The notes under the pieces were generated by a model. It searched no databases and was not told where the DNA came from. It saw only the letters and a list, made by a program, of their open reading frames with translations. From Eledone cirrhosa (taxonomy: Eukaryota): 64,000 nt of DNA. This document shows positions 21,205-54,974 of the stretch, in pieces. Each line of letters starts with the position of its first letter. Position 1 is the stretch's first letter. A program made the translations under genes and the position numbers. The stretch lies in contig OZ024754.1 of assembly GCA_964016885.1 (NCBI GenBank), positions 35,526,001 to 35,590,000 on the forward strand, read 5' to 3'.

Positions 21205-21276
21205 TATAAAGAATTAATATATCTAGTAACATATATATTTGTATATATATGTTACTAGATATATTAATTCTTTATA
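21205..21276. repeat. 72-bp AT-rich hairpin next to (TA)n
   Basis: TATAAAGAATTAATATATCTAGTAACATATATAT, a 4-nt loop, then the reverse complement. Confidence 0.85.
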
Positions 21277-21545
21277 ATTATCTCCAAATTATTTTGTCGA
21301 GCAAAAATTGGCCAAAACTGCTACTATAGTAACAGTCCGGCTGCTGTCTTCTTAACAAACCACTCTTCACTGATTGACGTCGATGTCACGAGACTGATTC
21401 TTTTGAATTTGCCACCGACGCAGTCGGCAGTGATTTTTTCAATGGCTTGGAATTTAGTCCACGCTTTGCTTTTTTCCATCCACTGAATTATTTTTGTATA
21501 AGTTCCGTGTGTCCACGTATTGCCTGGAAACTTAGCTGAGAATAG

Positions 21546-21627
21546 ACTTCCCTGATGACGAAAGGCTTCTCCGTACGTTTCTTCGAAAACTATGTTTATT
21601 CCCTTTCAGAAACTAATTAGTTGGAGT
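21546..21627 (+). ncRNA. Type I hammerhead ribozyme motif
   Basis: ACTTCC-CTGATGA-cGAAAGG...CCTTTCa-GAAA-CTAATTAG (palindrome)-TT-GGAGT. Confidence 0.7.
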
Positions 21628-21779
21628 GAAATTTTAGTAAGTAAGTTAATTTTATAATTTTCTTATTTTACGTCTCTCATATATATATATATATATATAT
21701 ATATATATATATATAGTAAGGGTGTAATTCGAGTGTCTAACAACCCAGCAACATTTGGACACGAGTCTACATGTGAAAG

Positions 21780-21870
21780 CTAATACCCGAGGAGCTTTCG
21801 ATTCTAGCGTCAGGATCGAACATAATCGATCGTTCCTTGAGTTGATCGGCATTGAAACATATGTAATTAG
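21780..21870 (+). ncRNA. Degenerate or variant hammerhead (core CCGAGGA), related to 20482 and 23208
   Basis: CTAAT..CCGAGGA, then a ~60-nt insert, then GAAA-CATATG (palindrome)-TA-ATTAG. Confidence 0.45.
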
Positions 21871-22363
21871 ATATGTATATGATTCAACAATGATTCTTTC
21901 TTCCCTAATTATATATATATATATATATATATATATATATATAAAAATTTTAGTACAGCATAGACGAAGGTCTAGTACACGGCCAAGCTAGCGTGTATGC
22001 TTATTCGGTTTGTAGCTTTAGCACTCAGATGAGGTAAGACCCCAGAGTATAACATTATGTTCAGACAGCTTAGCAAATTTATTATAGCAGTCGGCAGTCC
22101 GACCGCATTACCAGAGCAACGAAAATACAGGACCCAGGAAAAGATTTTTTACTGATATATATATATATATATATATATATATATATATATAACTGGCTTT
22201 TCACATAATACATATAGTTAGCACCCCAAATACTTAAATTAGGTTTATACTAACATATAACCTAATGTTTGTTGAGTGAGATGGGTACCAGTCAGAGTTT
22301 AGCTTTAAGCTATCTCTGTTATTGTATTAAATATATATATATATATATATATATATATATATA

Positions 22364-22880
22364 TATATAATAAAGAAGAATTAAAAGATGGTTAAAAGAG
22401 TTCCATATATTTTATTATGCGCATTTGAATACCTTCTATAATATTCCCACATACACCTCATCAATTTACTTTTTAACCGTTATTTACACCTGTTTTCATT
22501 TTGACAGCGTTCCTGATCAAAAGTCTGTCTCTTCTTTTTTTTCCTTTCTTCACTTTCTTTTTCCTCCTCTTTCCTTTTCTTCTATTTTCCTATCTATTTC
22601 TTACTATAGTTTTAACACATATTTCTGTCATATGCAGACTTAGCACTTTCCTGTAAACAAGTGCTATTATGCCTCATATCATGTTACCTTATTTTATCTG
22701 ATGAGAACACAATTTTTTGTCCCGGGGTGATTTTGTATTCGAAATGCGCATAATAAAATTTATGGAACTCTTAACCATCTTTTAATTTCTTCTTTATTAT
22801 ATATATTCCAGTTCTAGCAACTGTTGAGTGCTACTTATCTGATATATACATAGTTTTATTGTTCTACAATATTACTCACC
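22364..22880 (+). mobile_element. PLE-type fold-back module: inverted arm 22364-22432, spacer, hammerhead, arm 22735-22805, tail to 22880
   Basis: Imperfect ~70-bp inverted repeat; homologous to 53379-53800. Confidence 0.75.
22691..22759 (+). ncRNA. Minimal type I hammerhead ribozyme (PLE-type)
   Basis: ATTTTAT-CTGATGA-GAAcACAA...TTGTaTTC-GAAA-TGCGCA (palindrome)-TA-ATAAAAT; 7-bp stem I. Confidence 0.85.
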
Positions 22881-23160
22881 GCGCGCGCGCGTGCGTGTGT
22901 GCGTGTGTGCGTGTGTGCGTGTGTGCGTGTGCGTGTGCGTGTGTGCGTGTGTGCGCGCGTGCGTGTGCGTGTAAAACAGATAAACATTGATTGACAGATA
23001 AATTAACTATGGAGATATAAAAGATACCGAAGCGAAAACCAATCCAAACCAAACAGCGAGTGTGTTAATATTATTTCTGGTAATATTATAACAATATGAC
23101 CCTCCCCAAATATAATAATAATATATATATATATATATATATATATATATATATATATAT

Positions 23161-51235: not shown

Positions 51236-51807
51236 TATGGATACTAAATATTTATGCTAAGTATTAGTACCAAACTCAATACACACTATCGATTTTCGTG
51301 AACTTTAGTAATTAGAGGTATCGTATCCTCAACAGGTAATCAGGAGTAATCTCCCCTGCAAATTATGTCATTATGGTTCAAAAGAGTTCCAACTGTAAGA
51401 TTATCATTTTTCTCGATTATTAACTTCATTATTGGAAGACCAAATTAACTGATCATGTTACAAGACGGTTACCTGACAGAAGATACGAGAAATGGCGAAA
51501 GGAAAGGACCAAATCATTGATAATACCCATTCTCAAGAAAGGCTTTTAAAAACTCCAGAATTACAGAACTATCAGTATAGTTAGCATCCGTAGTAAAGTA
51601 CGGTTAAGTGTTCTTCTAAACCAGGCATGGGTAAACACTTTTGAGCAGTGAGCACCATAGGATGTGACTTGTCAGAAGGCAGGCCTCATTACTAACAAAA
51701 ATACAAGGCCATTTTGAAATTAGGCGTACTATTCAGAAAGCCAAACTGGGCGCTGATAATGTAACATTCGGGGATCGTCTGCTATCGTTATAACTATATG
51801 ATAAATA

Positions 51808-52025
51808 TAATGATTTCTAGTATAGGCACAAGGTCAGTAATTTGAGGGGAGGGGAAAGTCGATTAAATCGATCCCCAGTACGTTACTGGTGCTTTATTTT
51901 ATCGACCCCGTAAGGATGAAAGGCAAAGTTAACCTCGCTGGGATTTGAATTCAGGCCGTAAAGGGGCGTAACTCTATGCTACAAATCATGGCGTCCGACC
52001 CTCTACCGATACTGCCAATCCACCA
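51808..52025 (-). mobile_element. SINE A
   Basis: Full length, with A and B boxes. Confidence 0.9.
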
Positions 52026-53418
52026 TAATTATAAAAGCAAATTGTGATATGCACATTAAGCTTAAATCAACAAATATCACACTTTACATCGGACGTTAAG
52101 CTCTGGTTTGAGTCATTTAATGAAAATCGCCATTTTAATTCTGTAGGTTGCCAACATTTCTGTCTCTAGTCTCGTTCTTGTCAGTAACCTTTCAGCTTAG
52201 GCATTTATCCAAGTGTTTCGTAAACTTATGTGCCGTTCGTATATAGCTCCACGTTGGGGTTGATGTGAAGATGTATGGATCAGTGGTTAAACTTATGTGC
52301 CGTTCGTATATAGCTCCACGTTGGGGTAATGTATGGATCAGTGATTAAGGTGTTCAGCCAACGATCGTAACGTCATGAATTCGATTTCCGGGGGACGTGC
52401 TTTGCTCTTGAGCAAGACACTTTCATTCACAGATACGTGCAGTGTGTGACAAGACTGGCTATTTGAATTACAGTTACAATTTATTTATTTGTGCCAGATG
52501 AGTGGATTGAAGCAACGTGAAAGAAAGTGCTTTGCTCAAGAAAATAATGTGCCGGCAGGAATCAAACTACAATCATGAACCAAACACCCTTTACCACTAA
52601 GCTATACGCCTTCTAGTTCAAGCACTAGGTTCTGTTAAATTTATGAAACACTTCTCTAAATACCTGGTATTATGCCTATATTAGACACGGTTTAGAGGTA
52701 AAGCAATTTAGCTGAAAAAAAAGAAAGCTCCAGAACAAAATAATTTACTATATTCATTTTCCCCTCACTCTTTTCTCCCCCTCTCATTCACCGCTCTCTC
52801 TCCCTCTCTTTACTGACTTAATTCCTATTACAATGATTTAGTGTATTCCATCATTCTGTGTTCAATAGAATAAGTAATACGTATTATACTGGGTCGGTGG
52901 GTGGGGAGTCTCACCTCATTTATGAAGTCCACTACTCGCCTGCAGAAATTGGCCTTGTGCCTCGTCAAATTCTATCAATATTGATCGTCATTAAACATTA
53001 ACGACATGGCAAATAATAATAATAAATAAAAAGCCAACTGAGCAGACGATCAAAGAATTAAAAAAATAGAAAATTAAAAAAAATGTAGAAAAAAGGGGGC
53101 AAAATATCGAAGAAATTTAATAAAATGGATGGAAAAAAAGTGGCGAGTGGCGAGTTATTGGGGAATGGTAATTGTGTGAAGAATCGACCCATTGCCACCT
53201 TTTATCTATATGTAGAGTTATATGGAGAATGGTGCACAATGGATGTGTTAAAACTAAGACATCGCTATCGTCTGTTTATTCCTAATCGAGTTTCCTGATA
53301 ACATCGCCGTTTATTTGTGTGTGCATGCTTGGACACACACACGGACACACACATCTATCTATATGTATATATATATATATAATATAAGATCAAAAGATGG
53401 TTAAAGGAGTTCCATGTA

Positions 53419-53485
53419 TTTTATTATGCGCATTTCAAAAACAAACATCATCATGCAATAATATTTGTGTTTTCATCAGATAAAA
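53419..53485 (-). ncRNA. Mirror copy of the same hammerhead on the minus strand
   Basis: Exact reverse complement within the palindrome. Confidence 0.85.
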
Positions 53486-53607
53486 CAGGAGAACATGATA
53501 TGAAGGCTAAAAAACACTTGTGGATAGTGCAGTTTTAAATCAACATATGTTGATTTAAAACTGCACTATCCACAAGTGTTTTTTAGCCTTCATATCATGT
53601 TCTCCTG

Positions 53608-53674
53608 TTTTATCTGATGAAAACACAAATATTATTGCATGATGATGTTTGTTTTTGAAATGCGCATAATAAAA
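53608..53674 (+). ncRNA. Minimal type I hammerhead ribozyme
   Basis: TTTTAT-CTGATGA-AAAcACAAA...TTTGTtTTT-GAAA-TGCGCA-TA-ATAAAA. Confidence 0.85.
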
Positions 53675-54974
53675 TACATGGAACTCCTTTAACCATCTTT
53701 TGATCTTATATTATGCATACTCCAGTCCTACAAACTGTAGAGTGCTTCTTATCCGATATCTGCATTGCTTTATTGTACTACAATAAAACTCACCTCCTAC
53801 ATATATATATATATATATACATCTCACTTCTCTCTCTCTCTCTCACTCTCTCTCTCTACCAAACCTGCTCTTCTTTTTGCTTTTGCTTTTACCTTTTCTC
53901 CCCTCTCTCTCCTTCTCTCTCTCTCAGTTTCTCTTTCTCTATCTATCGTTCTACCTCATGGTATAATCCCTTCCATTTAACTTGTCCATTTTTCTTTATA
54001 TCTAACTAACCATCCACTTATCTCTCTGTATTACCAACTTTCTTTCTTTCTTTTCTCTCTCTCTCTCTCTCTCACTCTCTCTCTCTCTCTCTCTCTCTCT
54101 CTCTCTATCTATCTATCTATCTCTCTATCTCTCTATCTATCAACCTCTCTCTCTCTGTATGTGCCTCTCCTTCTCTCTCTCTCTTTGTACGTATGTGTGT
54201 GTATATATATATATATATATATGATATATATATATATATATATATATATGATATATATATATATATATATATATATATATATCATATATATATATCATAT
54301 ATATATATATATATCATATATATATATATATATATATATATATATACATATCATCCAAATGTAATCCATCATCGCTGATATGGTGGCTATAATACAAATA
54401 CGCAAACACACACACCCACGCACGCACACACACACACACACACACACACACACACACACACACACACACACACACACACACACACACACACACACACACA
54501 CACACACACACACACACACACACACACACACGCACATACATACACACACAAACCAATAAATACACACATACACCCAATCACATATTTTGCTATATCTATT
54601 TCTGTGAAGTGCACATCGCTGAGTCTTTGGTCAGTACCAATAATAAATCAAAAGAAGTTAATAGCGACAAAGTCACTCCACCTTGCTGTATTTCTGGGTA
54701 AAGGGATGCTGCAGACCTGTAAACTCTCCCCGTCTGACGGGTAGATCACCCACCCACTTTGGGGTGGGTGAGAGATGTCTTCTCTTGTGAAAATGGGTAT
54801 AGCTTTCATTATGTAAAATTTCCCTATTTTGCCTCATTTCTCCCCGTTTTGGGGGCACTTTTTTTCATGGTACTCCCCGTTTGTGTTTTTAGAGGTTGGG
54901 AGGTCTGCTACTCACTGATACAAATACGGTCGCTGAGCCGCTTGCCAGTCATAAGTCTCATGATGTGGTTCTGG

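Follow-up and report, generated by a model that had tools for sequence, protein, structure and literature searches.

Short fold-back modules at TA-rich microsatellites in Eledone cirrhosa are probably 5'-truncated, doubly primed insertions of Penelope-like elements

In a 64,000-nucleotide stretch of the Eledone cirrhosa genome (GenBank assembly GCA_964016885.1, contig OZ024754.1, positions 35,526,001–35,590,000 of the forward strand; the window, in whose numbering all positions below are given), short segments lacking open reading frames (ORFs) lie among (TA)n microsatellites and fold back on themselves through inverted arms. We consider it likely that each of these modules is a single, extremely 5'-truncated and doubly primed insertion of a (TA)n-targeting Penelope-like element (PLE). 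The arms, the fixed ends, the variable fold points, the presence of a tail on either copy, the match of the junction to the TA target, the hammerhead and hairpin motifs and one nested insertion were all observed directly. Judged by these RNA motifs, the source elements would rather likely belong to the Hydra clade of PLEs.

Fold-back modules lie beside microsatellites and carry a one-sided tail

Inverted arms of ~33–165 bp, 85–100% identical, were found in 11 modules. These comprise all eight loci for which the original prediction had proposed a shared module, the locus at 21208 that it had listed as possible (94–95%), and two fold-backs that it missed (7092–7338 and 24987–25081). As in known PLE insertions, an inverted 5'-truncated copy adjoins the 5' end in all 11 modules. 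The microsatellite beside the arms is (TA)5+ in ten and (TACA)n in the other. Among 12 inverted repeats examined in total, ten adjoin (TA)5+, one adjoins (TACA)n and one adjoins neither, compared with a background of 1.4% of 36,058 unique-like bases lying within 5 nt of (TA)5+; the 12 were picked by eye, simple-repeat, SINE-like-pair (SINE, short interspersed element) and short or weak rows having been dropped (among them 19985–20085, 35554–35607 and 58786/59701), and the enrichment p value is indicative only. The repeat that adjoins neither (47388–47472) is a 32-bp inverted repeat (91%) around an A-rich loop with no flanking (TA)n. Inverted-repeat alignment lengths given below take in a few shared TA bases.

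Unique sequence extends past one arm only in 11/11 fold-backs, and this tail measures 37–95 nt where it is bounded. In three fold-backs (23161, 25121 and 7035) the tail is on the short inverted copy. The spacer between the arms is essentially nil in the modules at 53382, 37395, 37909 and 24715, the last being a mirror image. We conclude that the fold-backs beside microsatellites are real. The single layout first proposed, running from (TA)n through inverted arm, spacer, hammerhead and second arm to tail and microsatellite, is exact only in the modules at 22370 and 23464, and the other modules depart from it. The hammerhead at 23161 points the opposite way, and the tail of the module at 25164 is on its left (25121–25171), outside the interval assigned to it.

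Ends are fixed and fold points vary within families

The modules had been described as mostly unrelated in sequence. This holds in general, and is broken by the modules at 22370 and 53382, which form one family, and by the module at 23161, which has relatives at 20481 and 21786 (68–69%). Four families could be aligned, each with two or three copies in the window, and in 4/4 a fixed 3' end is combined with variable 5' truncation or folding.

Family 1 consists of modules A and H, which align over 256 nt at 76.6% identity (E = 4e-48). In module A, the arms (22361–22432/22735–22806, 93%) are separated by a spacer of 302 nt. Its short inverted copy (22370–22432, minus strand; 93% to 22735–22798) starts at the inner junction, has no tail and adjoins (TA)n at 22331–22369, while the long 5'-truncated copy (22433–22798, plus strand) contains a type I hammerhead (core 22698, predicted cleavage after 22752) and continues into an 82-nt tail (22799–22880, plus strand) with a hairpin at 22805–22829, followed by (CG)/(GT)n. 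Module H (53382–53711) is a perfect palindrome of 165 + 165 bp (330 bp, 100%) with one hammerhead on each strand (53614, plus; 53479, minus) and an 86-nt tail (53712–53797, plus strand) that has a hairpin at 53719–53743 and the same end motif as module A. The arm/tail junction is common to A and H, their outer ends agree within 3–4 nt, and their tails are identical at 66/82 positions. In contrast, the arms measure 64 bp in A and 165 bp in H, and the long copies 366 and 165 nt. The H palindrome is centred on a 6-bp palindrome that is present, unfolded, in A.

The two copies of family 2 have identical inner and outer ends and opposite tail placement. In copy b (24650–25081, minus strand), the fold-back at 24987–25081 contains a partial hammerhead and the tail, on the long copy, runs from 24986 to 24650. 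In copy a (20911–21187, plus strand), an inverted tail (20911 to ~21000) is joined directly to a tailless long copy that has a complete hammerhead (core 21125) and ends at (TA)n; the arm is essentially absent. The tail of copy b is interrupted in its TA-rich part by module D (24715–24957, minus strand), a 96% palindrome without spacer (24810–24957), folded just 5' of a half hammerhead, with a tail at 24809–24715 and a hairpin at 24807–24786. Because copy a shows the same site uninterrupted, module D represents a single insertion event.

Families 3 and 4 likewise have common 3' ends and differing 5' ends. Family 3 comprises 21944–22154 (minus strand; 3' end and probable tail, no arm) and 37674–37853 (minus strand), which has the same 3' end and is ~24 nt shorter on its 5' side. 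Family 4 comprises two armless copies with degenerate hammerhead-like cores (20411–20614 and 21716–21909, both plus strand) and module B, whose arms (23158–23198/23331–23371, 85%) flank a spacer of 132 nt. The long copy of module B (23161–23330, minus strand; variant-core hammerhead at 23292) is tailless and reaches (TA)n, and the short copy (23331–23432, plus strand; 38-nt arm) bears a tail of 64 nt.

No two loci among the modules have an identical fold point. Since the ends are fixed and the fold points vary in the alignable families, truncation is favoured over a mobile unit. The original prediction had left two options open, to be separated by comparing breakpoints between copies: truncated PLEs, to which the fixed 3' junctions and variable folds of all four families lend support, and a new class mobile as a fold-back unit, against which speak the lack of a common fold point and the absence of tandem hammerhead units in the window.

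The remaining modules stand singly. Module C (23464–23757, plus strand; arms 23464–23542/23634–23714, 90%, spacer 91) has its first arm beside (TACA)n, a hammerhead core at 23611 and a 44-nt tail (23715–23757). Module E (25121–25299, plus strand) starts with its inverted tail (25121–25171) and an arm (25172–25203), contains a degenerate hammerhead core at 25237 and ends at (TA)n; its inverted repeat aligns as 25164–25203/25268–25306 (87.5%, spacer 64). Modules F and G are both on the plus strand: F (37395–37630; inverted repeat 37390–37597, 97%) is a near-perfect palindrome (37394–37593) plus a 37-nt tail with no hammerhead or hairpin called, and G (37909–38110; inverted repeat 37906–38031, 98%) is a palindrome (37909–38028) with the 3' half of a hammerhead (GAAA at 37989) and a tail hairpin at 38037–38060. 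The shortest member (21208–21302, plus strand) has 33-bp arms (21208–21273) followed by a tail hairpin (21281–21302) and is continuous with a segment (21303–21678, plus strand; hammerhead core 21552) that is probably a second insertion abutting it. The member at 7035–7338 (plus strand) has an inverted tail (hairpin 7084–7052), an arm at 7092–7127 and a long copy that reaches (TA)n at 7339, with no hammerhead called. Two armless segments are hammerhead-bearing 3' ends (20633–20887, plus strand, core 20695; 38159–38720, minus strand, core 38286). Taken together, the modules come from at least eight lineages.

Three further repeats were observed at these loci. The stretch 7263–7338, which forms the final 76 nt of the module at 7035, recurs at 7677–7752 (99%), 414 nt downstream and across a microsatellite. 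The last 24 nt of 20633–20887 resemble 23092–23115 (weak, E = 0.017). A diverged direct repeat (38372–38475/38568–38663, 73%, spacing ~196 nt) lies upstream of the minus-strand hammerhead at 38286, with the ribozyme outside it.

Most inner junctions match the TA target, and six of the eleven precede a hairpin

Past the end of the arm, the copy that bears the tail goes on matching the microsatellite; module by module, this match covers 3, 4, 9, 0, 2, 7, 3, 2, 5, 3 and 3 nt. A match of at least 3 nt between inner junction and TA target is therefore present in 8/11 modules (7/10 without H), compared with a background of 3.1%; the match in module A extends over 9 nt.

A bulged hairpin follows the junction in several tails. 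A strict pattern for it is found at four sites in the window, all of them in tails (A, D, G and H; null 0.19). An intermediate pattern gives eight sites (null 2.0), six within ~15 nt of a junction; it adds the 21208 and 7092 modules to the junction sites, and its other two sites are elsewhere. The scan itself demanded pairing, so the evidence is the position of the hairpin and not covariation. Hairpins in family 3 and at 38159 were left uncounted, having been found only by a relaxed scan and being non-significant. A multiple alignment of nine tails contains zero invariant columns; the tails are thus unrelated in overall sequence.

Published Hydra consensus sequences, compared by eye, contain a hairpin of the form GCTC, 4–5 bp stem, 2-nt bulge and GAGC. 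In both Hydra-2_Amil and Hydra-2_Ajap it comes after a TA-rich junction, and it opens the consensus of Hydra-1_Ajap; Hydra-1_Crog has a partial hairpin and Hydra-1_Amil and Hydra-1_Obim have none (3/6 full). The module D hairpin, GCTC-TGCT-loop-AGCA-TT-GAGC, can be set against GCTC-TGCT-loop-AGCA-TA-GAGC in Hydra-2_Ajap. Because the hairpin opens one Hydra consensus (Hydra-1_Ajap), the comparison suggests that the tail may be the 5' leader of the element, reached by read-through from the following copy of a tandem or circle. PMC8557442 uses neither 'hairpin' nor 'stem-loop' in its main text, and a narrow search of open-licence papers since 2021 found no report of such a hairpin; a stem-loop at the start of reverse transcription has already been described for the Poseidon element PAc (PMC11167929).

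Hammerhead motifs are concentrated in the nests

A descriptor of the type I hammerhead matched nine times in the window, eight times in three zones (~6.2 kb) and once adjacent to them, compared with a mean of 0.005 in 200 shuffles; because shuffling breaks up the TA tracts, this null is probably too low. Elsewhere in the window there was no match. Matches within the modules of the original prediction are at 22698, 23611, 53614 and 53479 (both arms of H) and 23292 (minus strand, variant core). A complete hammerhead is present in 4/11 fold-backs (A, B, C and H) and in four other segments, and a degenerate or partial one in four modules (D, E, G and family 2 copy b); none was called by the descriptor scan in module F, the arms at 21208 or the 7035 module. 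That some members have half a ribozyme or none was foreseen correctly: by eye, 24875 (minus strand) and 37989 are 3' halves, and nothing was called in 37395–37630. At 25237 both core boxes are present and the stem test failed. A looser first scan, which missed 21125, 21552, 38286 and 23292 and gave stray matches at 47345 and 5286, was replaced. An Rfam search of the window gave no matches at the gathering score, and at E up to 1 the best 150 of 443 matches were all microRNA models on microsatellites or palindromes.

In the core, stem I and stem III, modules A and H agree at 32/33 positions, compared with 157/219 elsewhere, a contrast suggesting that the motif was under selection in the lineages of the parents. 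Three cores (21125, 25237 and 38286) show the form CTGANGAT...TGAA, which predominates in the Hydra hammerhead table of PMC8557442.

A, C, D, E, G and 24987–25081 have at least one truncation point inside the hammerhead. This apparent clustering looks as if reverse transcription might have stalled at the structure.

Double priming probably accounts for the modules better than other readings

Insertion would proceed as follows. The GIY-YIG endonuclease of the element would nick both strands of a (TA)n tract. One reverse transcriptase (RT) start would occur at the inner UA-rich junction, which lies 22–53 nt downstream of the hammerhead and at which the RNA could pair with the nicked TA end, and the other at an outer site 37–95 nt beyond the inner junction. 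Both complementary DNAs (cDNAs) would stop early and then be joined head to head at their truncated ends. The inverted arms would correspond to the part common to both cDNAs, the spacer to what the longer copy has in excess, and the one-sided tail to the sequence that separates the two starts. Each insertion would leave new TA tracts as targets, and nests would build up. We infer the enzyme, the two priming events and activity of the ribozyme, and hold it probable that double priming accounts for the arms, the spacer, the tail, both tail configurations, the armless copies and the nesting. Simple self-copying from one strand fails, because the family 2 tail is also found on the inverted copy. 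The fold-back is predicted to be an insertion scar rather than a moving unit, and dead on arrival. A partial tandem (direct pseudo-long-terminal repeat), which would be unexpected in copies this short, was not seen by self-comparison of the window.

The alternative that deserves most thought, which we regard as unlikely, overlaps with double priming and differs from it in the priming and joining steps only, so that the weights given to the two overlap as well. Here the 3' end of a PLE would be inserted singly, and its cDNA would snap back and serve as its own template up to the element's own TA-rich junction, where the endonuclease would resolve it. Five modules with no or almost no spacer fit this, as does the centring of H on a 6-bp palindrome that is unfolded in A, and PMC8557442 ascribes the tail to resolution by the endonuclease. 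A short palindrome would, however, also favour annealing of two separate cDNA ends, and at 23161, 25121, 7035 and 20911 it is the short copy that is tailed and the long copy that is tailless, a pattern that calls either for another start or for an intermediate tailed at both ends and then cut at only one. The parents might instead be short ORF-less, retrozyme-like RNAs that carry hammerhead and tail hairpin, depend for their mobility on a Penelope-like protein acting in trans, and fold back at insertion. None of the modules extends as far as an ORF; within ~7 kb there are at least eight unrelated lineages, while the Hydra table has one Octopus family; the tail hairpin of 21208–21678 leads into a ~400-nt hammerhead segment with no TA tract between, and the ends of this segment are weakly similar (10/1000 shuffles); and non-autonomous PLE derivatives have been reported (bioRxiv 10.64898/2026.07.22.740005; PMC8557442). 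Yet extreme truncation suffices to explain the lack of ORFs, and there are neither tandem hammerhead units nor a direct tail repeat in any module, so that a family 1 monomer, if any, would exceed ~450 nt. At 21208 the arms match each other almost perfectly, but similarity in the proposed direct repeat reaches only ~63%, over gapped, AT-rich sequence. We judge this origin of the modules to be improbable.

Two readings dispense with retrotransposition. DNA transposons could be involved, either fold-back or MITE-like elements (miniature inverted-repeat transposable elements) with terminal inverted repeats or Helentron-associated HINE/DINE-1-like elements with subterminal repeats and a 3' stem-loop. 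The modules have no coding capacity, and an inverted repeat that lies at one end, with its partner subterminal at the opposite end and a hairpin after it, is a HINE-like layout. But HINE repeats are 12–15 bp, conserved within a family and directed to T-rich or TT targets (PMC4067079), whereas the module arms measure 33–165 bp, differ within a family and are essentially missing from family 2 copy a. The conserved family 1 tail (66/82) means that the repeats are not terminal, the conserved hammerheads are left unexplained, and the armless families 3 and 4 also count against this reading, which families 1 and 2 largely refute and which we hold to be very improbable. It is scarcely credible that the fold-backs are sequencing or assembly artefacts, or chance palindromes in AT-rich DNA. 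One might suspect as much from the 100% palindrome of H and from a window laden with microsatellites, but the arms differ (85–98%) in 10/11 modules, the boundaries of H coincide with those of A, 31 kb away, and the motif positions are non-random.

Several observations weigh against truncated, doubly primed PLE insertions. The sample is one 64-kb window, with two or three copies per family. Module F, with neither hammerhead nor hairpin, is an exception among the modules, and most tails exceed the 30–40 bp of the literature. The start site of PAc is not homologous to its target (PMC11167929), unlike the TA match in the modules. The hairpin pattern was drawn after Hydra sequences had been compared with the modules; it fails in B, C, E, F and the family 2 tail (5/11 without it), and in relaxed form comes near chance (14 matches; null mean 6.6, maximum 13). 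The comparison of tails covered Hydra elements only, so the clade is soft. The shuffle null for the hammerhead is probably too low, and folding of nine hammerhead-like regions revealed no unusual stability (z from -1.0 to +1.3); in metazoan minimal hammerheads helix III is described as unstable or absent and cleavage in vitro as poor (PMC4209133). Finally, none of 211 frames of at least 45 codons in the window had a Pfam match to RT or GIY-YIG, and a motif scan of the window for the two gave incidental matches only, so that the PLE assignment, which we consider likely, rests on RNA motifs and architecture.

Frames in the window and the protein link

The Pfam search of the 211 frames returned a C2H2 zinc finger and two weak, unrelated matches, and five further frames, searched at E up to 1, gave nothing relevant. 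Among segments with a hammerhead, the longest frame has 93 codons (21327–21605, minus strand); it had no homologues among 19 candidates and no match in 1.84 billion sequences. Two candidate coding regions were dropped: 20918–20982 as a GIY-YIG C-terminus, being antisense to the tail and without a relevant Pfam match, and the frame in the A/H tail, in which changes occur at all codon positions (by eye). No copy contains the ORF with RT and GIY-YIG that marks an autonomous PLE, and the modules are thus classed as PLE-type insertion remnants.

Comparison with known systems

The modules resemble Hydra-clade PLEs (for example Penelope-13_HM, Hydra-2_Ajap and Hydra-1_Obim; Craig et al. 2021, PMC8557442) in (TA)n insertion, in a type I hammerhead near the 3' end with a core of the same form and a TA-rich junction, and in an inverted 5'-truncated copy, hammerheads on both strands and a tail hairpin. 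PMC8557442 describes inverted 5'-truncated copies, one-sided tails and near-universal (TA)n insertion for Hydra elements and, for one Hydra family, an inverted copy with a hammerhead on both strands. Minimal hammerheads on opposite strands 100–700 bp apart are also on record (PMC4209133). The modules differ in having no ORF and a length of 100–550 bp, with tails of 37–95 nt, whereas Hydra elements measure 2–3 kb, and by eye they match none of six published Hydra consensus 3' ends at the family level. The Hydra clade is defined on protein (RWK, DKT, CxCX5C, no CCHH; phylogeny), whereas the modules were compared by RNA motifs only, and (TA)n insertion is common to Hydra and Naiad and hence not diagnostic alone.

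Naiad PLEs, which are present in Octopus, have (TA)n targets, inverted copies and tails like the modules and are described as lacking a canonical hammerhead, unlike the hammerhead-bearing modules (PMC8557442). One 3' motif of the Octopus Naiad consensus had no match in the window at up to 3 mismatches. The hammerhead-less module F may have a Naiad-like origin. The Poseidon element PAc (Frangieh et al. 2024, PMC11167929) has a tail bounded by two start sites, a stem-loop in the start region and AT-rich targets, as is seen or proposed for the modules, and both strands were cut and extended in vitro. In PAc the ORF starts at the hammerhead and the start site is non-homologous to the target; in the modules, no ORF follows the family 1 hammerhead and there is a match between inner junction and TA tract.

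Non-LTR (long terminal repeat) retrozymes (bioRxiv 10.64898/2026.07.22.740005) are ORF-less and PLE-related like the modules, with a type I hammerhead and a short palindromic stem III. They form tandem units, each with a hammerhead, whereas the modules are inverted, single copies of variable length, and no direct-orientation repeat containing a hammerhead was found in the window. HINE/DINE-1 elements (PMC4067079) resemble the modules in a subterminal inverted repeat followed by a stem-loop and in microsatellite association. They have fixed 12–15 bp repeats and T-rich targets, with no ribozyme mentioned in the passages that describe them; the modules have neither such family-conserved repeats nor a T-rich target. 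Nor do they have the fixed inverted repeats at both termini of MITEs (PMC8969392), given the conserved tail outside one arm and arms of 64 and 165 bp in one family.

Setting of the modules in the window

The window is repetitive DNA of the animal type, with 22,735 of the 64,000 bases masked as low-complexity; neither tRNA genes nor a long non-repetitive ORF were found in the window. Fifteen (TA)n tracts with short unique segments between them lie between 20411 and 25320, and five further tracts within 37340–38160. Two of the short unique segments between microsatellites of the nest (22192–22330 and 22973–23120) had no hammerhead or arm called.

An abundant ~190-nt repeat, which we take to be SINE-like, has many copies, 75–97% identical and some in tandem or inverted pairs (6855–7044, 13187–13632, 31440–31824, 46870–47073, 56086–56880, 59210–59407, 60555–60740, 63200–63389 and others). 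Tandem arrays at 48115–49093 and 61637–61894 have units of 123 and 31 bp; a CTGATGA box that lacks a GAAA partner is present in most of the shorter units. The C2H2 match (6432–6587, minus strand; E = 1.2e-4) is single and under the curated cut-off, in a frame within a 392-nt segment bounded by two (TA)n tracts. A short frame at 35966–36199 (minus strand) has a weak match to a UvrD-like helicase C-terminus (Pfam E = 0.04) and presumably resembles a Helitron or PIF1-type helicase remnant. A 159-codon frame at 58283–58762 (minus strand) has five homologues at 39–61% identity and no Pfam match; we assume a likeness to the restriction-like endonuclease end of a non-LTR element.

Meaning for Penelope-like elements and their host

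The architecture has already been described for PLEs, and the modules are not a new class. As minimal insertions they show both fixed ends and the joint within 100–550 bp. PMC8557442 names the origin of tandem and inverted structures, tails and microsatellite bias as an open question, and the modules bear on it through a tail that can be on either copy, a junction that matches the TA target and a conserved hairpin next to it. We also entertain, as an improbable extension, that the UA-rich junction and bulged hairpin (RCTC, 4–6 bp stem, 2-nt bulge, GAGY) form a conserved Hydra-clade cis-signal for positioning RT, in corals, sea cucumbers and this host, and at the same time that some families are short ORF-less RNAs using this signal, with 21208–21678 as a whole ~400-nt monomer.

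PLEs of Octopus vulgaris have been recently active, with 31 families and 336 insertions (PMC13282606). The families of the modules may already be in the repeat library of that study, and short inverted copies may risk being labelled MITEs or unknown repeats in error. From the modules it would seem that the hammerhead-bearing, TA-targeting families of a single host far outnumber those in the catalogues.

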